Part shown: positions 10,777 through 58,509 of the stretch, one piece after another
Layout: every line of letters starts with the position of its first letter
Position numbering within the stretch: position 1 is the first letter of the stretch
IMG/VR virus record: IMGVR_UViG_3300020045_002727
Location: 10,136 to 74,135 of that record
Length of the DNA: 64,000 nt
Origin: a virus
Taxonomy: Duplodnaviria > Caudoviricetes
Reading direction: 5' to 3' (one strand)
The notes under the pieces: model-generated
Seen by the model: the letters and a program-made list of their open reading frames with translations, nothing else
Databases searched by the model: none
Told to the model about the DNA's origin: nothing
Position numbers and translations under genes: made by a program

Positions 10777-11683
10777 ACTCAATCTAAAGAACGTGGTGTT
10801 CTTTGATATTGAAACGGTAGCATTATACGATGAACTACCAGAAAACTCACCAACATGGGATGCTTGGCAATACAAGATGGAACGTGAAGGTAAGTCAACC
10901 GAAAACCTAAAAGAATCTTACAAGAAAACAGCAGCATTATACCCAGAGTTCTCGAAGGTAGTTTGCATCTCCCTTGGTAGGATAAAAGGTAACAAGTTAA
11001 ACCTTAAATCATATTATGGTGAAGAGAAAGTATTACTGCAGGATTTTACCGATGATTTGAATTTAGTTACAGATTCAATACCTAAAACAGTTTTATGTGG
11101 TCAGGCTATCATTGGATTTGATGTACCATTCTTGTTTAGACGTTGTTTAGTTAACGGTATTCAACCACATGATTTATTGGATGTATCTGATAAGAAACCA
11201 TGGGAGGTGTTGGATACAATGATTGATACAAATGTCTTATGGAAAGGCACTGGTTTCAATGGTGCTTCGCTTATTGCAATTGCTAACGCATTCGGTTTAC
11301 CATCACCAAAAGATGATATTTCTGGAGCTGATGTTGGTAGAGTGTTTTATTCAGAAGGTGAAGCTGGTTTGAATCGTATAGTAACTTATTGTGAGAAAGA
11401 TGTACTAGCTGTTGCAAATGTTGTTAGGAAGTGTAGATTTGAAGACATTTTAGAACCTGTTCATTCAATTGATGATAGTGAAGAAGCGTTTGAGAAGCAA
11501 CCATTGATTATAAGCCTTTTTAACGGGGGTGCGTTCAATGAAAAACAACAACAGGAGTTAACAGACCTTTATAATAAATGTAGCGATAAAACAGCCGCTA
11601 TGATTGTTCTGGAAGCTATGACATCTACAGCAAAAGGTAAAATAACAAAAGTAACAAAAGCATGGCTAAAGACACTAAAATAA
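10760..11683 (+). CDS. PolB-exo-like 3'-5' exonuclease
   Basis: FFDIETV, IIGFDVPF, YCEKDV. Confidence 0.85.
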   Translation: MKVLNKLNLKNVVFFDIETVALYDELPENSPTWDAWQYKMEREGKSTENLKESYKKTAALYPEFSKVVCISLGRIKGNKLNLKSYYGEEKVLLQDFTDDLNLVTDSIPKTVLCGQAIIGFDVPFLFRRCLVNGIQPHDLLDVSDKKPWEVLDTMIDTNVLWKGTGFNGASLIAIANAFGLPSPKDDISGADVGRVFYSEGEAGLNRIVTYCEKDVLAVANVVRKCRFEDILEPVHSIDDSEEAFEKQPLIISLFNGGAFNEKQQQELTDLYNKCSDKTAAMIVLEAMTSTAKGKITKVTKAWLKTLK

Positions 11684-12312
11684 TCCTACCAAGGAAAGAT
11701 GAGAATGGTGAGTATTACATCTCTTACTCTCAACTTACAACATGGAAGAAAAGTAAAAGGGATTACATCAGGCAGTATTTCTTCGGGGATAAATTTGAAG
11801 GTAACTCTTACACTGATTTCGGGGGAGATATTGGTGAAGCATTAGAGAATAATGATTTCTCTGATTTCACAGCCAAGGAGAGAGCATTCTTAGAAACTAT
11901 CCCACGTTATGACCAATTTGAACGTAAAATCAGATTGGAATTAGATGGATTCTATGTCATGGGATTCATAGATACGAATACAGCTGACTTTAAACACATC
12001 ATGGACTACAAAACTGGTGATATGGGTAAAGAATCAGAGTATGACAATGATAAGTATTACCAATTAGAAATTTATGCAATGGGGCTGGAGCAAGAGACTG
12101 GAATCTTACCAGAGACTGCTAAAGTAACATTGATTGAAAGAACTGGTAATGCTTTCCAAGGTGAGGAATTAAAACTAGGTACTAAATTTATTCAGATTGA
12201 CAGGTCATTAGACCCGTTTAGATTAGAATATGTTAAAGCTGATGTAATTAAAATTGCTCATGAGATTTCAGATTGTTACAAAACATTTTTAACATTGTGT
12301 GGAAATGAGTAG
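11662..12312 (+). CDS. PD-(D/E)XK (RecB-like) nuclease
   Basis: SYSQL, GFID, IMDYKTG, QLEIYA. Confidence 0.85.
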   Translation: MAKDTKIILPRKDENGEYYISYSQLTTWKKSKRDYIRQYFFGDKFEGNSYTDFGGDIGEALENNDFSDFTAKERAFLETIPRYDQFERKIRLELDGFYVMGFIDTNTADFKHIMDYKTGDMGKESEYDNDKYYQLEIYAMGLEQETGILPETAKVTLIERTGNAFQGEELKLGTKFIQIDRSLDPFRLEYVKADVIKIAHEISDCYKTFLTLCGNE

Positions 12313-12484
12313 GTCAAGAAAAGATGAAGAAGTTAAAACACCCTCGGCTAGGCTGAGGAGTGTTTTCTATCTGTTGTGGACTAAGGATAAACAAGGTCAT
12401 GGTGACTTTGAAGATTTTTATGATGACAAGATGGAGATGCTTATTGAGCATTATAAAAATATTTTGAAAAAACTTTCTAAATAA
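12299..12484 (+). CDS. Small hypothetical protein
   Basis: 61 aa; KTPSARLRSVFYLLW; last gene of the replication block. Confidence 0.7.
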   Translation: MEMSRSRKDEEVKTPSARLRSVFYLLWTKDKQGHGDFEDFYDDKMEMLIEHYKNILKKLSK

Positions 12485-12516
12485 TTTGGAGGGTATTAAA
12501 ATTTATTATATCTTTG
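12485..12516 (+). promoter_or_regulatory. Bacteroidota sigma-A promoter (-33 TTTG / -7 TATCTTTG)
   Basis: TTTG 12485-12488 and TATCTTTG 12509-12516; ATG follows at 12521, possibly leaderless. Confidence 0.85.
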
Positions 12517-12520
12517 CCTC

Positions 12521-12622
12521 ATGAAAATAATCAGACTGCATATAATAATAGCACTTCTAACATTAGAAGTATTAGTTCAAGACCCTCATATGGGTCATGA
12601 GGTAGCGTGTTTAATGGTGTAA
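12521..12622 (+). CDS. Putative attenuator leader peptide 1 (MKIIRLHIIIALLTLEVLVQDPHMGHEVACLMV)
   Basis: 33-codon ORF between a promoter and a terminator hairpin, upstream of tRNA array 1. Confidence 0.7.
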   Translation: MKIIRLHIIIALLTLEVLVQDPHMGHEVACLMV

Positions 12623-12645
12623 TAATTTTATGCTAAATATATACT

Positions 12646-12677
12646 AAGCCTCCTCTCGAAAGACTGGAGGCTTTTTT
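12646..12677 (+). terminator. Intrinsic terminator / attenuator upstream of tRNA array 1
   Basis: AAGCCTCC-TCTCGAAAGACT-GGAGGCTT followed by a T run. Confidence 0.85.
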
Positions 12678-12723
12678 ATTCGGTTTTTAATAGGTTGACC
12701 GAGATAAAAATAACTTATTATTT

Positions 12724-12811
12724 CTAGGTGTGAAGGCAATTGGAAGCCGACTCGTTTTGGAAACGAGAAGTAGTTAATAGCTCAATGCAGGTTCGAGTCC
12801 TGTCACTTAGA
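12724..12811 (+). tRNA. tRNA-Pro(UGG), unusually long variable region
   Basis: CTAGGTG/CACTTAG acceptor, CTCGT-TTTGGAA-ACGAG, GCAGG-TTCGAGT-CCTGT; C1:G72 and A73. Confidence 0.85.
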
Positions 12812-12820
12812 CAATATTTT

Positions 12821-12892
12821 GCTCCCATCGTCTAGCGGTTAGGACATCAGGTTTTCGACCTGAGAACGAGGTTTCGACTACCTCTGGGAGTA
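12821..12892 (+). tRNA. tRNA-Glu(UUC)
   Basis: Cloverleaf; TCAGG-TTTTCGA-CCTGA. Confidence 0.92.
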
Positions 12893-12937
12893 CATAGAGA
12901 TACTTAGCCTTTAACTCTTTAAAAAGCAAGGTACTTT

Positions 12938-13009
12938 TGCACCATCGTATAACGGCTAGTACAATTGCCTTTGAAGCAATTAGCATAGGTTCGATTCCTT
13001 TTGGTGCAA
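12938..13009 (+). tRNA. tRNA-Gln(UUG)
   Basis: TGCACCA/TGGTGCA; ATTGC-CTTTGAA-GCAAT. Confidence 0.92.
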
Positions 13010-13016
13010 CAAACAT

Positions 13017-13091
13017 GGTGATTGTAGCTGAATTGGTTAAAGCCTCTGATTGTGATTCAGAAGATTAAGGGTTCGAGTCCCTTCTTTCACA
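13017..13091 (+). tRNA. tRNA-His(GUG)
   Basis: TCTGA-TTGTGAT-TCAGA; extra 5' G; two U.U mismatches in the acceptor stem. Confidence 0.85.
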
Positions 13092-13096
13092 CTAAA

Positions 13097-13178
13097 GCTG
13101 ATGTGAGTTAAAAGCGAATGGCAGAGCATCTCCCCTTAGAAGGGAGGACTTTTGAGGGTTCAAATCCCTCCAACAGCA
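13097..13178 (+). tRNA. tRNA-Leu(UAG), atypical (short variable loop, long D loop)
   Basis: CTCCC-CTTAGAA-GGGAG; GAGGG-TTCAAAT-CCCTC; GCTGATG/CAACAGC. Confidence 0.75.
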
Positions 13179-13183
13179 CTACT

Positions 13184-13255
13184 TTCTGATTAGTTCAATG
13201 GATAGAACAGGTGATTACGAATCATCAAATACAAGTTCGAGTCTTGTATCGGGAA
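13184..13255 (+). tRNA. tRNA-Arg(ACG)
   Basis: GGTGA-TTACGAA-TCATC; TTCTGAT/ATCGGGA. Confidence 0.9.
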
Positions 13256-13260
13256 CAATA

Positions 13261-13339
13261 GGGGTCATGGTGAAACGGTAAACACGCAGGTCTTAAAAAT
13301 CTGTGCTTCGGCTTGTGGGTTCAACTCCCACTTTCCCCA
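13261..13339 (+). tRNA. tRNA-Leu(UAA)
   Basis: CAGGT-CTTAAAA-ATCTG; type II variable arm. Confidence 0.9.
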
Positions 13340-13364
13340 CAAAAGTTAAAATATTCACAAAATA

Positions 13365-13396
13365 TTTGCACATGTAAATTATTTGTAATATCTTTG
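13365..13396 (+). promoter_or_regulatory. Bacteroidota-type promoter inside tRNA array 1
   Basis: TTTG 13365-13368; TATCTTTG 13389-13396. Confidence 0.75.
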
Positions 13397-13444
13397 CTTC
13401 ATAATAAAACGAATAGTTCAGTTGATAGGGAACAATTTAAAATT

Positions 13445-13517
13445 TGGTATATAGCTCAATTGGTAGAGCATCTCCCTGATACGGAGAAGGGTATAGGTTC
13501 GAGTCCTATTGTACCAA
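13445..13517 (+). tRNA. tRNA-Ile(GAU)
   Basis: TCTCC-CTGATAC-GGAGA; TGGTATA/TGTACCA. Confidence 0.9.
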
Positions 13518-13532
13518 CAATATTAAATAAAG

Positions 13533-14033
13533 ATGATTAGAAATTCAAAACAAGTAGAGTTAACAAAATTAGCTTATAATAAAGGATATAGAGTTTTAGA
13601 AAATGGAGATGTGATAGGACTTAGAGGTAAGAAATTAAATCTTTTTGAAAACAGTAAAGGATATTATTGTTTCACTATAAGAAGAAAAGATAAATGCCCT
13701 ACTTATACATTTGTTCATAAATTAAAAGCCTATCAATTATTTGGAGATGAATGTTTTAATGAAGGAATTGTAATTAGACATTTTAATGGTAACAATAAAG
13801 ATAACTCAGATATTAATATTAAAATTGGAACTCAATTTGATAACATGATGGATATGACACCATTACAGAGAAAGTTAAATGCGAGTAGTCCTATTCATAA
13901 TCATTCTGAAATATTGAAAGATAGAGAATCTGGAATGACATATAGAGAAATACAAGAAAAATACAATATTTCATCTAAAGGAACAATTAGTTTTATTGTA
14001 AACAAATCAATGAAGAAAGAAAAACTAAAATAA
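13533..14033 (+). CDS. HNH homing endonuclease inside tRNA array
   Basis: FVHKL...VIRHFNGNNKDN...GTQFDNMMD; C-terminal HTH-like segment. Confidence 0.85.
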   Translation: MIRNSKQVELTKLAYNKGYRVLENGDVIGLRGKKLNLFENSKGYYCFTIRRKDKCPTYTFVHKLKAYQLFGDECFNEGIVIRHFNGNNKDNSDINIKIGTQFDNMMDMTPLQRKLNASSPIHNHSEILKDRESGMTYREIQEKYNISSKGTISFIVNKSMKKEKLK

Positions 14034-14068
14034 ATGTTAAAATAGTTGCAAGGTAATATTTTTTGATA

Positions 14069-14076
14069 TATCTTTG
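14069..14076 (+). promoter_or_regulatory. Bacteroidota -7 promoter element
   Basis: TATCTTTG 11 nt upstream of the tRNA at 14088. Confidence 0.7.
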
Positions 14077-14087
14077 TACCATAATAT

Positions 14088-14171
14088 AGCGAGGTAGTCA
14101 GTAGATGGTAGCTTGTGAGGCTCATAACCTCATGTCGAAAGACCCCGTGGGTTCGAGTCCCACTCTCGCAA
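14088..14171 (+). tRNA. tRNA with CAU anticodon (initiator-like, A1.A72 mismatch) and extra variable arm
   Basis: TGAGG-CTCATAA-CCTCA; GTC-GAAA-GAC arm; GTGGG-TTCGAGT-CCCAC. Confidence 0.8.
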
Positions 14172-14236
14172 CAAGATTTGTCATCGTTTTTTAAAATTAA
14201 GGATTAATAAGTGACGGCTCGGAAAGACGAGCAATT

Positions 14237-14308
14237 GGTCTATTGGAGTAGTGGTAACTGTACTAGCTTGTCACGCTAGGGTCGGGGGTTCGATTCCCCC
14301 ATAGACCG
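14237..14308 (+). tRNA. tRNA-Asp(GUC)
   Basis: CTAGC-TTGTCAC-GCTAG; GGTCTAT/ATAGACC. Confidence 0.92.
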
Positions 14309-14347
14309 CAAAAGTTTTATAAGATTTTCCTTTGATAAAATCTAAAC

Positions 14348-14421
14348 GCCTTAATAGCTCAGTCGGTTAGAGCATCTCATTTGTAACGAGAAGGTCGTAG
14401 GTTCAAACCCTACTTTTGGCT
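14348..14421 (+). tRNA. tRNA-Thr(UGU)
   Basis: Loop TTTGTAA; canonical D and T arms; two U.U mismatches in the acceptor stem. Confidence 0.88.
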
Positions 14422-14508
14422 CTATTTTAGAAAACATTAATCCTATGGTCGGATGTGAGAACCATATAGCCGTATTTAAAAAACTCACAATGTTTTCTAA
14501 AAGAGTAA

Positions 14509-14619
14509 GCTCGATTAGTGTAATGGTAACACGCAGCAAATCCCAGCTGAAAGAGAGTCATAGAGTAGAAATAATCACTTTATGATGAAACATAACAGGT
14601 TCGATTCCTGTATCAAGCT
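14509..14619 (+). ncRNA. 111-nt tRNA-like RNA (Gly-like acceptor) with large internal insertion
   Basis: GCTCGAT/ATCAAGC acceptor, GTGT-AATGGTA-ACAC D arm, ACAGG-TTCGATT-CCTGT T arm; aberrant anticodon arm plus an extra 8-bp hairpin. Confidence 0.65.
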
Positions 14620-14667
14620 CAAATCGATTGGTTGTGATGACGAGGAGGTCGATGCCTCAATTACAAT

Positions 14668-14739
14668 CGTGTGTTCGTCTAGTGGTCAAGGACGGTGACA
14701 AGTGCGTTGCAAACATGGGTTCAAATCCCATACACACAT
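14668..14739 (+). pseudogene. Degenerate tRNA / tRNA-like RNA with 6-nt anticodon loop
   Basis: GTGTGT/ACACAC acceptor, GTCTAGTGGTCAAGGAC D arm, ATGGG-TTCAAAT-CCCAT; loop AAGTGC. Confidence 0.65.
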
Positions 14740-14850
14740 CAAATAGTCTATTAATAAAAGTTATATCAATGACACATAACAACGTGATTAACTTAGGATA
14801 TGAGAATGTAAGTTCTCCACATAGTAAACCGATAAAATTAATAGACATAT

Positions 14851-14923
14851 ATCCTTATAGCTTAAATGGAAAAGCCTCTGATTTCTAATCAGACGAGTAC
14901 AGGTTCAAATCCTGTTAGGGATA
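14851..14923 (+). tRNA. tRNA-Arg(UCU)
   Basis: TCTGA-TTTCTAA-TCAGA; ATCCTTA/TAGGGAT. Confidence 0.92.
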
Positions 14924-14927
14924 CAAA

Positions 14928-15026
14928 GGGAGATGATAGCGATTTTGGGAAAGGTGAGTTGACTCCTCATCCGTATTCAGGTTGCCACCATGCAACTGGT
15001 GCTGAGTATGTAGCTACATATCTCCC
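14928..15026 (+). ncRNA. Unassigned ~99-nt structured RNA between two tRNAs
   Basis: Nested stems GGGAGAT/ATCTCCC, TAGC/GCTA, GTATTCAG/CTGAGTAT, GTTGC/GCAAC. Confidence 0.6.
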
Positions 15027-15033
15027 CTATTAG

Positions 15034-15107
15034 TGCCATTTAGCTCAGTTGGTTAGAGCAGTCCCCTCATAAGGGAAAGGTCACAGGTTCGAGTCCTGTA
15101 GTGGCAA
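15034..15107 (+). tRNA. tRNA with CAU anticodon (elongator Met or lysidine Ile2)
   Basis: TCCC-CTCATAA-GGGA; TGCCATT/AGTGGCA. Confidence 0.88.
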
Positions 15108-15167
15108 CAAAAAGTCAGGGTAACACCTGATTTAATTTTAAGTATTAATGTAAAAAAATTTACAGTT

Positions 15168-15314
15168 ATGTATAGTAAGATAATTAAAGGTAAGAAAGTT
15201 AAAACTATAAAGTATTCTAAACCATACAGTAGTAGTCAACTATCAGCAATGATGGAATTAACTGATATATTTGAACGTAAAATAAAAAAGCTCAGAAATG
15301 AAAAGCAACCTTAA
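15168..15314 (+). CDS. Small basic hypothetical protein (48 aa)
   Basis: ATG 15168 to TAA 15314, overlapping the next gene. Confidence 0.55.
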   Translation: MYSKIIKGKKVKTIKYSKPYSSSQLSAMMELTDIFERKIKKLRNEKQP

Positions 15315-15522
15315 AAACTTCGTAATCGACATTGGGGATACACTAGGTGGAATCCTCCTAGGTTTATCATTGGATGCTCACAGCACCATGATGATGGTCT
15401 TCGGTTCTTTATTAATAATATTCTCCGTTTATTTCAAATACTTAAACAATAAAAAAGAACCTGTAGAAGGTGAGAAGTTCACCATGGGTGAAATTATTGA
15501 ACATTTAAAGGACATTCGATGA
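15298..15522 (+). CDS. Small membrane protein
   Basis: Two hydrophobic segments. Confidence 0.65.
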   Translation: MKSNLKNFVIDIGDTLGGILLGLSLDAHSTMMMVFGSLLIIFSVYFKYLNNKKEPVEGEKFTMGEIIEHLKDIR

Positions 15523-15875
15523 ATTATAAGGAAACAATTTTAATTCCTACATCAGTGTTGTTGTCTAAATTATGCTCTGAGATAGATTCGTATTTTTATT
15601 CATTCGGTCAAGATTTACCATCTAAGAATAAGATTCAGAAGTGGTTGAGGGATGAATGGGATGTGGACATGAGTGTTCATTTAAACGGTATGTGTGGGAT
15701 TAACATAGATAGTGGTGAAGTGACTAAGAATTACGGTGGTCATTATATTTACAAAGGTGATGTGTACATGCTTGGTTTAACACCGTTTATAACATCTCAC
15801 GAGGAAGCGCAGGAAACGATTATAAGATTAATATTAACTAAATTATTGAAAGAATATGATAACAACGATTTATAA
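15519..15875 (+). CDS. Hypothetical protein
   Basis: 118 aa, ATGA-coupled to the upstream gene. Confidence 0.7.
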   Translation: MNYKETILIPTSVLLSKLCSEIDSYFYSFGQDLPSKNKIQKWLRDEWDVDMSVHLNGMCGINIDSGEVTKNYGGHYIYKGDVYMLGLTPFITSHEEAQETIIRLILTKLLKEYDNNDL

Positions 15876-16938
15876 AAAAGATTCCAATGGTAAAGTTCGA
15901 TACATCACCATTGGTAATTTCGGAGCAGTAATAACTCAACAATCTGGTATTGTAGGTTCTGACAAATTTGTAGAACACTCTAAAACAGCTACTGGAAAGA
16001 ACGTTAGAAGAGCAAATGAAACTTCACCAGAATATCAAGCTGAACTTGAAGTTACAGCATGGGTTAAGGATAAATTAACCAAAGGTTATTTTAGGACAAT
16101 AGAGGAAACAAAATCAGCCGAGGTAGTACTACCTATGTTAGCAAAAGATTTCTTCAAGGAACGTCACAAAATTGACTGGAATAAAGATGTGATAGTGGTT
16201 CAACCAAAGTTGGATGGGATGAGATGTTTAGCATTCGTTTCAGCCGATGGTAAAGTAGAGCTTGTATCACGAGCTGGGAAGAAGATTGAGAACATGATGC
16301 ATATTGAGAAAGAGCTGTCAACACTGGGTGTGGATGTGATTCTTGATGGTGAATTATATGTTCATGGTGAAGGATTCCAGACTAATATGTCATACGTTAA
16401 AAAATATGTTGAAGGGAAGTCGGAGAGGATTATTTTTAATGTTTATGATATGGTTAGTGATAGACCTTATTTATCTAGGATTGATAAAGTTAAAACTATC
16501 ATCGACCATTTGAAAAAAGTAAGACCTTTATTTTACAGCACTGTTGGAACAGAGGATGAACTCAAACAACATTTTACAATTTACATAAAAGAAGGATACG
16601 AAGGCGCAATGGTCAAAATATCTAAATCTGGCTACAAGTCCAACGCCCGTAGTTCCGAACTATTAAAGTACAAAAAGTTCATCGACATCCAACTACCAAT
16701 CAAAGACATCATTCCAGCAGACCAAAGACCTACATGGGGAATCCCAGTGTACTATTGGGAAGGAGCTGATGATGACACTTTGAAATCTGGTACAAAAATG
16801 AGTCACGAAGAACGTGAGGACTTGTTGACCAACAAAGATAAATACATCGGACAGATGGCAGAGGTTAGATTTTTTGAATATTCAGATGCTGGAGTACCGA
16901 GGTTTCCAGTGACTGTAGGTATTAGACTTGATAAATAG
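15856..16938 (+). CDS. lig: ATP-dependent DNA ligase
   Basis: VQPKLDGMRC (KxDG), LDGELY, FNVYD, GYEGAMVK, LLKYKK; OB-fold with PRFP. Confidence 0.93.
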   Translation: MITTIYKKDSNGKVRYITIGNFGAVITQQSGIVGSDKFVEHSKTATGKNVRRANETSPEYQAELEVTAWVKDKLTKGYFRTIEETKSAEVVLPMLAKDFFKERHKIDWNKDVIVVQPKLDGMRCLAFVSADGKVELVSRAGKKIENMMHIEKELSTLGVDVILDGELYVHGEGFQTNMSYVKKYVEGKSERIIFNVYDMVSDRPYLSRIDKVKTIIDHLKKVRPLFYSTVGTEDELKQHFTIYIKEGYEGAMVKISKSGYKSNARSSELLKYKKFIDIQLPIKDIIPADQRPTWGIPVYYWEGADDDTLKSGTKMSHEEREDLLTNKDKYIGQMAEVRFFEYSDAGVPRFPVTVGIRLDK

Positions 16939-34888: not shown

Positions 34889-35590
34889 TTATTCTTGGTT
34901 TTCTATTTTTACTTGTTGTTTTAAACTCTCTGTTATTTGGACTATGTCTGACTCCCTTAATGTAATTCCAAAATAACTTAACACTTTAATCACAATATTT
35001 GAAAACTCTGATTCATGTAATTCAAAATCTTGAAAACTTGGATTAGTTGAATCGAACATCACTTCATTATTTGGTAAAACAAAGTAAGTCCATTTTGGGG
35101 CTTTAGGAGTACGTAAATATCTACAATCAACATTCACTATCACAGAAGCAGGATAGACCTTTATATACGTGTTAAAACGCTCGTAGACAGGGTATGTTAA
35201 TGTCGGTTTAGCATCTGATTTATTTAAGAAGGCTAAATCTTTCCTTTCTACTTCTTCAATTACAGCTCCGTTGGATGGGAGTACTATACCATCTTCCTCT
35301 ATTAAATAAAGGTTTGTAGGTAATACGTGAGTACCCGATGTATAAACTAATGGTGCTGATGCAGCAAATTGGTCTATTCTTTGTCTTTGGATGAAGGGTA
35401 AGTTTGAATAACCTTCATTCGACAATCCTCTATTTTGCTTGTTTTTATCACGGTTCTCGTCTTCAAAATACCCTCTAAATATTTCCATTTGTACGAGGTT
35501 AGATATTTTGTTAAACTCTTCTGGAGTCACGTAGCCCTGATTGTCTTTACTGAGTACAGTAAGTACTGTTTGGTAAACTAAGTCTATCAT
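34889..35590 (-). CDS. Tail ring / tubular protein A-like
   Basis: KDNQGYVTPEEFN, YLRTPKAPKW, FELHESE. Confidence 0.6.
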   Translation of the reverse strand: MIDLVYQTVLTVLSKDNQGYVTPEEFNKISNLVQMEIFRGYFEDENRDKNKQNRGLSNEGYSNLPFIQRQRIDQFAASAPLVYTSGTHVLPTNLYLIEEDGIVLPSNGAVIEEVERKDLAFLNKSDAKPTLTYPVYERFNTYIKVYPASVIVNVDCRYLRTPKAPKWTYFVLPNNEVMFDSTNPSFQDFELHESEFSNIVIKVLSYFGITLRESDIVQITESLKQQVKIENQE

Positions 35591-50626: not shown

Positions 50627-50630
50627 GTTG

Positions 50631-50701
50631 AAATCATATTGGGAGTCGAACCCAAACCTTTAATTTTGCAGACTAAATGCTTAACCGTCAGCCTTATGAT
50701 T
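50631..50701 (-). tRNA. tRNA-Cys(GCA)
   Basis: TTAGT-CTGCAAA-ATTAA; AATCATA/TATGATT; U73. Confidence 0.88.
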
Positions 50702-50703
50702 TG

Positions 50704-50776
50704 TGGGGCAGGTGAGAATCGAACTCACTCCTCTGGTTTTTCAGACCAACGCTTCTACCAAGTTAGCTTCTCCCCC
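50704..50776 (-). tRNA. tRNA-Phe(GAA)
   Basis: TTGGT-CTGAAAA-ACCAG; GTGAG-TTCGATT-CTCAC. Confidence 0.9.
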
Positions 50777-50827
50777 AGTATAGCCTTAATCAGTTATAAA
50801 CAATGTTTATAGCCTTTTAAGGTTTTG

Positions 50828-50896
50828 CACAACCCCAAGGAATCGAACCTTGTCCTACACTTTTGGAGAGTGTTTGGCTGCCATAGCCTGAGAAGT
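50828..50896 (-). tRNA. tRNA-Trp(CCA)
   Basis: ACACT-CTCCAAA-AGTGT; CAAGG-TTCGATT-CCTTG. Confidence 0.85.
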
Positions 50897-50901
50897 AGTT
50901 G

Positions 50902-50973
50902 CTGCTCCTAATGGACTCGAACCATTATAAACTGATTAACAGTCAGCCGTAATTACCTTTATACGAAAGAGCA
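50902..50973 (-). tRNA. tRNA-Asn(GUU)
   Basis: GCTGA-CTGTTAA-TCAGT; TGCTCTT/AGGAGCA; G73. Confidence 0.92.
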
Positions 50974-50978
50974 TTTTG

Positions 50979-51063
50979 CAGAAAGTAAAGGTCTCGAACC
51001 CTATGCGAATAAACGCACCACAATCTTAGCAGGATGTGCTGACACCTAGTCAGTCTACTTTCT
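50979..51063 (-). tRNA. tRNA-Ser(GCU)
   Basis: Loop CTGCTAA; long variable arm GTGCG-TTTATT-CGCAT; G73. Confidence 0.88.
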
Positions 51064-51068
51064 ATTTG

Positions 51069-51154
51069 CAGAAGATAGAGAAATCGAATCCCCATCAGGT
51101 ACTACCCGATGCCATGGGGTTCAAGCCCACTTTGTCACCTTGACGGTATCTTCT
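51069..51154 (-). tRNA. tRNA-Ser(UGA)
   Basis: GTGGG-CTTGAAC-CCCAT; 7-bp variable arm; AGAAGAT/ATCTTCT; G73. Confidence 0.88.
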
Positions 51155-51230
51155 ATAATCGTATCGAGACTTCTGACGTAAGCAGTGTATATAATACTTA
51201 CCGAATTAACTCCCTTTATGAGACTCAACG

Positions 51231-51311
51231 TGGGGAGGTGTGGACTCGAACCACTCCCTTGCGGACGGATTTTACAGACCCGTTGCTAAATCCAATTAGC
51301 TTTACTACCCC
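51231..51311 (-). tRNA. tRNA-Tyr(GUA)
   Basis: CGGGT-CTGTAAA-ATCCG; variable arm TCC-GCAA-GGG. Confidence 0.85.
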
Positions 51312-51348
51312 AAAATGATAAAGCCTCCAATCTTTCGAGAGGAGGCTT
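51312..51348 (-). terminator. Attenuator terminator upstream of tRNA array 2
   Basis: Minus strand AAGCCTCC-TCTCGAAAGATT-GGAGGCTT-TATCATTTT; 27 of 28 nt identical to the hairpin at 12646. Confidence 0.85.
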
Positions 51349-51376
51349 AAATTTTCAAACTATAAATAGCTTCACA

Positions 51377-51448
51377 TTAAGACATGTCCTCTCGATAGCC
51401 ATTCCAGCTATAGAAATTAAACGAGTTATATGTGTTACAATTTTTCAT
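51377..51448 (-). CDS. Putative attenuator leader peptide 2 (MKNCNTYNSFNFYSWNGYREDMS)
   Basis: 23-codon ORF; 15 of 23 residues are N/Y/S/F/W/C, the amino acids of the downstream tRNAs. Confidence 0.8.
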   Translation of the reverse strand: MKNCNTYNSFNFYSWNGYREDMS

Positions 51449-57948: not shown

Positions 57949-58083
57949 TGGAATGTACGTCCGAAGGGTTCGGGCTAACTCAAAGAATTGTGTACACCGA
58001 TTCTTTGGGTGATGCAGTGTGTGAGGTTGCGAATGGTTACACATTCAATCCCAATATAGGTTCGATACCTTTACATTCCACTA
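57949..58083 (+). ncRNA. Multi-arm tRNA-like RNA (~135 nt)
   Basis: TGGAATGTA/TACATTCCA closing stem, T-arm-like AGG-TTCGATA-CCT, three internal hairpins. Confidence 0.55.
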
Positions 58084-58105
58084 CTAATTCTTAAATTTTA
58101 AAATT

Positions 58106-58399
58106 ATGTCAAAAGTAAACAATTTACAAGTTACGTTCAATCATTCAGCTAAAACATTCCCAGAAGCATTAGGAATTACAGATGGTGCAAACCATATGTC
58201 AAAAGTATCAGCTGATATTTCAACTGATGTAGCTACTGGAAAAGTAGAAAGAGAAAGTCAAGTAGCTGAACTATTGTACAATCAATTGAGTGATGCTGAA
58301 ATCTTATTAATTGCAGCAAAGTATATCACTAAAACTGTACAAGATTTCCAAAACCAAAACCCACTTGAAGCATTATTACGTGCTGTAAGTAAAAAGTAA
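58106..58399 (+). CDS. Hypothetical early protein
   Basis: 97 aa with A-rich initiation region and strong codon bias. Confidence 0.75.
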   Translation: MSKVNNLQVTFNHSAKTFPEALGITDGANHMSKVSADISTDVATGKVERESQVAELLYNQLSDAEILLIAAKYITKTVQDFQNQNPLEALLRAVSKK

Positions 58400-58406
58400 A
58401 AACGTT

Positions 58407-58478
58407 TACGGAATAGCATAATGGTAATGCAATAGTGCGAAAGCACTACGTATATCGGTTCGACCCCGATTTCCGTAT
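58407..58478 (+). ncRNA. tRNA-shaped RNA with GAAA tetraloop in place of anticodon loop
   Basis: TACGGAA/TTCCGTA, GCAT-AATGGTA-ATGC, TAGTGC-GAAA-GCACTA, ATCGG-TTCGACC-CCGAT. Confidence 0.85.
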
Positions 58479-58509
58479 CAAATAATTATAAACTAAAATC
58501 ACGACAGCT

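Follow-up and report, generated by a model that had tools for sequence, protein, structure and literature searches.

In enterobacteria, leader-peptide attenuators can be multivalent, as in the ilvGMEDA leader (Ile, Leu, and Val) and the thr leader (Thr and Ile); the trp, his, leu, and pheA leaders are further examples of this type of regulation. A locus upstream of a tRNA array in a phage genome, leader 1, resembles these attenuators in its short, promoter-proximal open reading frame (ORF) that is rich in regulatory codons, in the intrinsic terminator that accompanies this ORF, in a putative alternative pairing of the 3′ end of the ORF with the 5′ arm of the terminator, and in a stop codon placed such that a terminating ribosome would favor the terminator. 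Unlike the enterobacterial attenuators, which control genes for biosynthetic enzymes, leader 1 would control tRNA genes whose product directly relieves the stall; in addition, it would probe up to ten amino acids, its mRNA is predicted to be leaderless, and it is carried by a phage. Its putative antiterminator is much weaker than the classical 2:3 stems of the enterobacterial systems.

T-box riboswitches bind uncharged tRNA directly, are longer and contain no ORF, and control aminoacyl-tRNA synthetase and amino-acid genes. The leader 1 cassette shares with them the proposed sensing of tRNA status and the choice between a terminator and an antiterminator, but it uses an ORF and has no specifier loop, T-box sequence, or Rfam T-box match. 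Why phages carry tRNAs, and when these are expressed, has been debated for decades. Explanations usually offered are that phage tRNAs compensate for codon usage, make up for host tRNAs lost in the course of infection, or allow anticodon nucleases to be evaded (e.g., PMC10264068).

Leaderless attenuators have been described in mycobacteria, where leaderless polycysteine short ORFs are reported to act as cysteine-responsive attenuators (bioRxiv 10.1101/834739). As proposed for leader 1, the codon content of a leaderless mini-ORF ties downstream expression to decoding; the mycobacterial ORFs differ in that they are reported to control Cys-related protein genes, to respond to one amino acid only, and to belong to a cellular genome. 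For Flavobacterium, reports exist of both leaderless mRNAs and attenuation by leader peptides (PMC9723704). The attenuators of Flavobacterium psychrophilum match leader 1 in host clade and in promoter type (TAnnTTTG at -12 to -5), but precede host amino-acid biosynthesis operons instead of a phage tRNA array (PMC9723704). Host machinery of this clade therefore supports the mechanism considered here. In full-text literature searches, no description of leader-peptide control of tRNA genes was found. The paper in which infection transcriptomes of Cellulophaga phage phi38:1 were published (PMC5335546) contains neither “leader” nor “terminator,” and its mentions of tRNA concern host genes. The proposed leader 1 system would differ from the known attenuators in its target (tRNA genes), in the number of amino acids probed, and in its carriage by a phage; attenuation itself is known.

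Phage Genome and tRNA Arrays

The window analyzed in this study, a stretch of 64,000 nucleotides, covers positions 10136-74135 of an IMG/VR virus record that is 74,135 bp long and carries direct terminal repeats; unless indicated otherwise, coordinates refer to the window. The 74-kb phage genome is podophage-like. Its large terminase showed 50% identity with that of Flavobacterium phage elemoA and 46% identity with those of the Cellulophaga phages phi38:1, phi40:1, and Calle (Pervagoviridae), which makes Flavobacteriia the likely host. Among the public sequencing runs listed as sharing sequence with the window, each with small fractions of the sampled words, none was recorded as RNA. ARAGORN detected 12 tRNAs in array 1 (12724-15108, plus strand) and five in array 2 (50630-51311, minus strand). 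A leader was also sought upstream of tRNA-like genes at 57985-58479, where none was found.

The proximal tRNAs of array 1 (12724-13340, plus strand), which have no promoter of their own, are those for Pro, Glu, Gln, His, Leu(UAG)-like, Arg(ACG), and Leu(UAA). The Leu(UAG)-like gene (about 13096-13181, within 13093-13183, plus strand) was missed by both ARAGORN and Rfam and has an unusual D region; its counterpart in the array of L016, a metagenomic relative, is a called Leu(UAG) tRNA with which it can be aligned, and on this basis CTA was counted as a served codon. Distal tRNAs (14088-15108, plus strand) are CAU, Asp, Thr, Arg(UCU), and a second CAU. An HNH endonuclease ORF (13533-14033; PHROG 59, E = 8.5e-14) lies inside the array; in Tenacibaculum phage Gundel_1, an ORF without annotation occupies the equivalent site, between leader 2 of that phage and the tRNAs of that leader. 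Two tRNAs of array 1 are oddly built: tRNA-Pro(UGG) (12724-12812) is 89 nt long, has an extra arm, and barely reached the Rfam cut-off (29 bits), while one CAU tRNA (14088-14172; 85 nt, 32 bits) has an extended variable arm. Relatives carry normal-sized versions of both. Assignment of either CAU tRNA as an initiator was rejected, as inspection by eye revealed no initiator features in the anticodon stem or at 1-72.

Promoters and Predicted Transcription Start

Promoter P1 (12485-12516, plus strand), as read from the sequence, consists of a TTTG element (12485-12488), 20 nt, and a -7 box, TATCTTTG (12509-12516), of the Bacteroidetes type. Eight TATCTTTG sites in the window align to one TTTG/TTG-spacer-TATCTTTG layout. 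A sigma-70 scan was uninformative for a promoter of this type, and the terminator of leader 1 was missed because of its long loop. In F. psychrophilum, the TAnnTTTG box is located at -12 to -5 (PMC9723704). With the box in this position, the four-base gap between the box and the ATG of leader 1 (12521) would place the transcription start on the A of that ATG (12521, plus strand), and the mRNA is predicted to be leaderless. The same 4-nt spacing is found in seven other cassettes of the kind described below (Calle B and C, Gundel 1 and 2, L019C, L021C, and L024C); in the remaining ones, the ATG mostly lies about 21-25 nt downstream of the box.

A search for TAnnTTTG between the terminator and tRNA-Pro (12678-12723) showed that none was present. 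Two TATCTTTG boxes do occur further into the array: P2 (13389-13396, plus strand), directly upstream of tRNA-Ile, and P3 (14069-14076, plus strand), downstream of the HNH ORF and upstream of the distal tRNAs. Because both putative promoters sit without a leader or terminator, they can express the Ile, Met, Asp, Thr, and Arg(UCU) tRNAs without leader 1, and strict gating by an attenuator can only apply to the seven proximal tRNAs. Interpretation of the 13389 region as a relic of a lost second leader was rejected, as its similarity to P1 is the promoter consensus common to the eight sites.

Composition of the Leader 1 ORF

Leader ORF 1 (12521-12622, plus strand) has 33 sense codons and a stop codon at 12620-12622. 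A sequence-only reading of the locus had proposed the order promoter, ATG, 33-codon ORF, terminator, and tRNAs, and all of these elements were found. It had also claimed that 24 of the 33 residues are amino acids served by the array (Pro, Glu, Gln, His, Leu, Arg, Ile, Met, Asp, and Thr), that all ten are represented, and that Asn, Tyr, Ser, Phe, and Trp are absent, which proved correct. The unserved residues are four Val, two Ala, and one each of Lys, Gly, and Cys. Its inclusion of CTA among the served codons stood by virtue of the uncalled Leu(UAG)-like gene that aligns with the called tRNA of L016.

When tested against a background of 0.49, the share of the ten-amino-acid set in the proteome, 23 of 32 residues belonged to this set (P = 0.008), and 4.4% of random small ORFs of the same genome reached the amino-acid match of leader 1. 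Within the presumed sensing zone, codons 2-25 (12524-12595, plus strand), 19 of 24 residues are served by the array (P = 0.003), as against 4 of 8 in the tail. At the codon level, ATA occurs four times (P = 0.008) and CAT three times (P = 0.003). These counts are more telling for leader 1 than the match to the amino-acid set, with the match of ATA to the array depending on one CAU tRNA being Ile2. Because the ten-amino-acid set covers 49% of the proteome, the enrichment is modest, and leader 1 taken alone is modest evidence. Comparison of the ORF with PHROG and Pfam gave no family match.

Terminator and Alternative Pairings

An intrinsic terminator (12646-12677, plus strand; -15.1 kcal/mol) with an 8-bp outer stem and an inner 2-bp stem, followed by six T, lies downstream of the ORF. 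Its hairpin spans 12646-12673, with arms AAGCCTCC and GGAGGCTT, and the last T of the run is at 12677. Strong hairpins of this kind are rare in the 64-kb window: a scan for -11 kcal/mol or lower with at least four T gave nine matches at eight sites, the leader 1 terminator included. The region around leader 1 folds better than shuffled sequences (z = -4.1), and a 36-nt stretch across the terminator is 92% identical to the hairpin upstream of array 2. An IMG/VR search with the exact pattern of the leader 1 hairpin yielded no matches. In a cmscan of 11500-16000 against Rfam (E ≤ 1), weak sub-threshold matches elsewhere were the only ones besides the tRNAs.

Segment 1, CCTCAT (12584-12589, plus strand), which contains the Pro-His codons, can pair as a protector with ATGAGG (12597-12602). 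Segment 2 (12598-12607, plus strand), with a GAGG core at codons 27-28, is the best partner of the terminator 5′ arm; for leader 1, this duplex has a calculated energy of -9.9 kcal/mol (shuffle p = 0.107), which is not significant by itself, and is among the weakest of the 15 cassettes analyzed. At the corresponding place, L019, the closest array-bearing relative, carries GAGGTC, which faces GACCTC in its own terminator (-11.0 kcal/mol, p = 0.033).

In the minimum-energy fold of the full-length leader, segment 2 lies inside a hairpin at 12572-12605. In a transcript cut before the 3′ arm of the terminator, GAGG closes an extended helix onto CCUC of the 5′ arm. This helix, the putative antiterminator, encloses an AU-rich hairpin (12607-12644, plus strand) that holds the stop codon. 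A ribosome mask at codons 9-23 of the cut transcript left the antiterminator helix in place, while a mask at the stop codon removed it; in silico, the pairing probability of the 5′ arm was 0.49-0.53 with mid-ORF masks and 0.21 with the stop-codon mask. Full-length equilibrium folds retained the terminator in every ribosome state, and the model therefore needs kinetic, co-transcriptional competition.

The words proposed in the sequence-only reading for the protector (CCTCAT and ATGAGG) and for the antiterminator (GAGGT, 12599-12603, with GCCTC, 12648-12652; TAGCGT, 12603-12608, with ATGCTA, 12630-12635) are all present, and the antiterminator was rightly expected to be weaker than that of the leader upstream of array 2 (-9.9 kcal/mol, p = 0.107 vs. 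-11.1 kcal/mol, p = 0.007). Recurrence of TATCTTTG at 13389 and 14069 likewise agreed with the proposal that internal promoters at these positions could provide a bypass for the distal tRNAs.

Leader 2 and Array 2

Upstream of array 2, the leader 2 region (51312-51448) contains a 23-codon ORF (51448-51377, minus strand). Of its residues, 12 of 22 are Cys, Phe, Trp, Asn, or Tyr (P = 6e-5), or 15 of 22 if two uncalled Ser tRNAs are counted. The latter are type II tRNA-like genes with anticodon loops UGA and GCU, seen by eye at 50973-51230 (minus strand) between tRNA-Asn and tRNA-Tyr. Near the end of the ORF, TCGAGAGGA is the exact 9-nt complement of TCCTCTCGA in the 5′ arm and loop of the terminator, a pairing of -11.1 kcal/mol (shuffle p = 0.007). 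The T run that follows this hairpin is broken, and tRNA-Tyr begins about 10 nt later. Since no TAnnTTTG box was seen close upstream, leader 2 may be co-transcribed with a structural gene that ends about 20 nt upstream of its ATG.

Homologous Leaders in Related Phages

Metagenomic relatives were found via the neighboring PD-(D/E)XK nuclease gene, and L016, L017, L018, L019, L021, L022, and L024 add cassettes. An alignment-based scan of IMG/VR returned nine loci with one new array only (L024); an IMG/VR search with the nuclease as a single protein returned no relatives, and blastn against phage records gave matches to the nuclease gene and generic tRNA matches only. In seven relatives (L019, L016, L017, L018, L021, L024, and Calle_1/phi38:1), leaders homologous to leader 1 precede syntenic Pro-Glu-Gln-His arrays. 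Alignment of leader 1 with the leaders of L019, L016, L018, L017, L021, and Calle_1 identified M1, L6, H7, E16, and Q20 as invariant, with other residues and length being variable; the leader of L024 is a further one of this type. Such an invariant Leu/His/Glu/Gln pattern would be expected if selection acted on the identity of the codons and not on the peptide that they encode. Composition of the ORF is thus conserved among relatives, the absence of which had been named beforehand as a result that would speak against an attenuator.

Leader 1 and the leader of L019 have a 7-residue insertion in common. Array 1 differs from the other Pro-Glu-Gln-His arrays in that it continues on the same strand with tRNAs for Ile, Met, Asp, Thr, and Arg(UCU). 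Residues Ile, Met, Asp, and Thr make up 9 of 32 in leader 1 and 18 of 171 across the remaining leaders of the Pro-Glu-Gln-His type (p = 0.012); for Ile, these fractions are 5 of 32 and 7 of 171 (p = 0.025). In L032 (1820-2066), a near-identical strain variant from another sample, the ORF has four changes (Ile to Ile, Val to Ile, His to Gln, and Met to Ile), of which three alter the residue and all four remain in the served set, while the -7 box, segment 2, and terminator are identical to those of leader 1; these four changes are an anecdote rather than a test. Among the relatives, L015 has the most similar nuclease (79% identity); other genes occupy the leader position there, and both the leader and a Pro-Glu-Gln array are lacking.

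Cellulophaga phages phi38:1 and Calle_1 each have three cassettes in which a promoter and a mini-ORF are followed by a GC hairpin, its T run, and then tRNAs; in phi38:1 (L003), the three hairpins lie near 35400, 37000, and 38130. Their arrays encode Lys-Ile-Gly-Met-Asp-Thr-Val-Arg, Ser-Ser-Asn-Trp-Phe-Cys, and Pro-Glu-Gln-His-Leu-Arg, with the first tRNA of the second block read as Tyr from its GUA anticodon loop, and each mini-ORF is mostly spelled in the amino acids of its own block. Two cassettes were found in Tenacibaculum phage Gundel_1 (Pachyviridae), whose terminase is 27% identical to that of the window phage. Outside tRNAs and the promoter consensus shared within each lineage, sequences of the cultured phages and the window phage are unrelated.

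The GenBank annotation of phi38:1 (L003; 35253-35360, 37894-38076, and 38163-38294) touches the leaders in gp066, gp070, and gp071. The first leader ORF is included in gp066, which starts at a TTG further upstream, and the Pro-Glu-Gln-His leader is contained in the last part of gp070. As gp071 overlies two tRNA genes called by ARAGORN (Pro and Glu), its annotation as a CDS is probably false. At the end of the first array of Calle_1 (L010, reverse-complement about 1931-2000), a weak tRNA-like match (23 bits) has an anticodon loop that, by eye, might read UAU (Ile, codon AUA).

Genes for an RNA ligase and a PNKP-like protein, of the tRNA-repair kind, adjoin the tRNA arrays in some relatives, with anti-defence genes close by. 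RNA ligase and PNKP-like genes, together with nearby Sequestin and Acb2/Tad1-like genes, were noted in L017 (9747-12090 and 8216-8611), L018 (9616-11882), and L015 (11265-11576), and phi38:1 has an RtcB-type tRNA ligase. The presence of repair and anti-defence genes beside the arrays fits a possible conflict over tRNA.

Tests Across 15 Cassettes

Predictions of an attenuator were evaluated over 15 cassettes from the window phage, Calle_1/phi38:1, Gundel_1, and five metagenomic contigs. All 15 have a hairpin of -12 to -20 kcal/mol, located 23-49 nt downstream of the stop codon. Thirteen of the 15 leaders were singly enriched for the amino acids of their own array (P < 0.02), and in swaps within genomes the own array beat the sister array in 13 of 13 cases. 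Leader 1 showed a 1.46-fold enrichment for its own set and a 0.13-fold value for the set of array 2. The best partner of the terminator 5′ arm lies in the 3′ part of the ORF in 15 of 15 cassettes, and this pairing beat dinucleotide shuffles in 10 of 15 (p ≤ 0.04).

Served residues account for 169 of 254 positions (67%) upstream of the antiterminator segment, as compared to 48 of 131 (37%) in the tail (Fisher p = 2.5e-8). A bias of this kind is predicted for an attenuator, and would not arise from a peculiarity of composition alone. Because homologous leaders are not independent samples, P values over the cassettes overstate the number of evolutionary events. The composition pattern recurs across lineages whose leaders no longer align, and hairpin sequences are wholly different between relatives in which the logic of the ORF is retained.

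Discussion

The attenuator-like interpretation first put forward for this locus was supported by the seven homologous leaders, by the composition of the 15 cassettes, by the location of served residues upstream of the antiterminator segment, and by the folds of truncated transcripts; its support derives from the comparison with relatives rather than from leader 1 alone. On balance, leader 1 is probably a working, ribosome-mediated transcription attenuator on a leaderless mRNA that gates the proximal tRNAs. In the proposed mechanism, host RNA polymerase would initiate at the A of the ATG, and a ribosome would load immediately onto the leaderless mRNA and translate the 33-codon ORF as a test. 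The first 25 codons, mostly for Ile, Leu, His, Glu, Gln, Pro, Asp, Thr, Arg, and Met, would be those read by the downstream tRNAs. Upon fast decoding, the ribosome would reach the stop codon within the AU-rich hairpin, which would act with GAGG:CCUC to sequester the 5′ arm; with the ribosome at this position, the 5′ arm would be free, the terminator would form, and transcription would end at 12677. If any sensed tRNA were scarce or uncharged, the ribosome would stall upstream, the antiterminator helix would persist, and the polymerase would read into the Pro-Glu-Gln-His-Leu-Arg-Leu tRNAs and beyond. The net effect would be a feedback in which tRNAs are produced when needed. Because the promoters at 13389 and 14069 can express the Ile, Met, Asp, Thr, and Arg(UCU) tRNAs without the leader, the Ile run may respond to tRNAs over which leader 1 does not have sole control.

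The main rival to a working attenuator sees leader 1 as weakened, or simply leaky, within a family that does function. In that case, the ancestor would have been a working attenuator whose antiterminator eroded, and output would stem from leakage through the terminator and from internal promoters. The 2:3 pairing of leader 1 is indeed weak (p = 0.107), below that of leader 2 (p = 0.007) despite a near-identical terminator, and the two leaderless internal promoters and the oddly built tRNAs of array 1 would also suit a decayed element. However, leader 1 has kept an intact ORF, -7 box, segment 2, and terminator; in L032, the latter three are unchanged and the ORF changes are all within the served set. 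Moreover, the Ile, Met, Asp, and Thr content of the leader has risen in step with the array, and a promoter running straight into a fixed terminator would be wasteful. Decay was therefore regarded as unlikely. A role of the RNA that is independent of translation, either as a structure for processing or stabilization of the tRNA precursor or as a small RNA of approximately 155 nt, with an incidental ORF, was considered rather improbable. Consistent with such a role, the region is unusually structured (z = -4.1), nearly the same hairpin precedes both arrays, and array 2 has its hairpin only some 10 nt ahead of the first tRNA, with an interrupted T run after it. It would, however, leave unexplained why the composition of the mini-ORFs tracks the downstream tRNAs (13 of 13 swaps), why served residues cluster upstream of segment 2, and why the start codon coincides exactly with the predicted +1 in eight cassettes, and it does not sit well with hairpins that differ completely in sequence among relatives while the ORF logic is kept.

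Two further explanations assign the function to the peptide or to direct binding of tRNA. Leader 1 is rich in Ile, Leu, and Val and its closest homologues, in L019 and L016, are hydrophobic too, as might be expected of a functional micropeptide, for example a membrane-active early protein, with the terminator ending a small gene. The homologues in L017, L018, and Calle C are hydrophilic, however, invariance beyond the start Met is confined to Leu, His, Glu, and Gln positions, no PHROG or Pfam family was matched, three of the four L032 differences alter the residue, and charged residues break the hydrophobic stretch, which together render a functional micropeptide very improbable. Ribosome-free, T-box-like sensing of uncharged tRNA by the RNA itself would agree with regulated genes that concern tRNA supply and with the choice between terminator and antiterminator, but is hardly credible: Rfam gave no meaningful non-tRNA match in 11500-16000 at E ≤ 1, the leader is just about 155 nt long without a specifier loop or T-box sequence, and one RNA could not specify ten tRNAs.

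With a working attenuator as the preferred interpretation of leader 1, a broader proposal can be formulated, to which we assign a slightly better than even chance. Flavobacterial phages from at least two families (Pervagoviridae-like and Pachyviridae) would use leaderless, multi-amino-acid attenuators whose codons mirror the tRNAs that they gate, resulting in a self-tuning supply circuit that switches on the phage tRNAs once those of the host are depleted, cleaved, or outpaced; leader 1 would be a working member whose codon list grew, including the Ile run, as its array fused with a second one. Phages of this kind would probably make tRNAs when the served codons are read slowly. As phi38:1, Calle_1, and Gundel_1 carry the same cassettes and have cultured hosts, this hypothesis is directly testable. 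If it is true, classical attenuation extends to a new class of targets, whose product relieves the signal, and the phage would possess, ahead of its tRNA genes, a sensor of its own showing that these genes are expressed in response to decoding speed.
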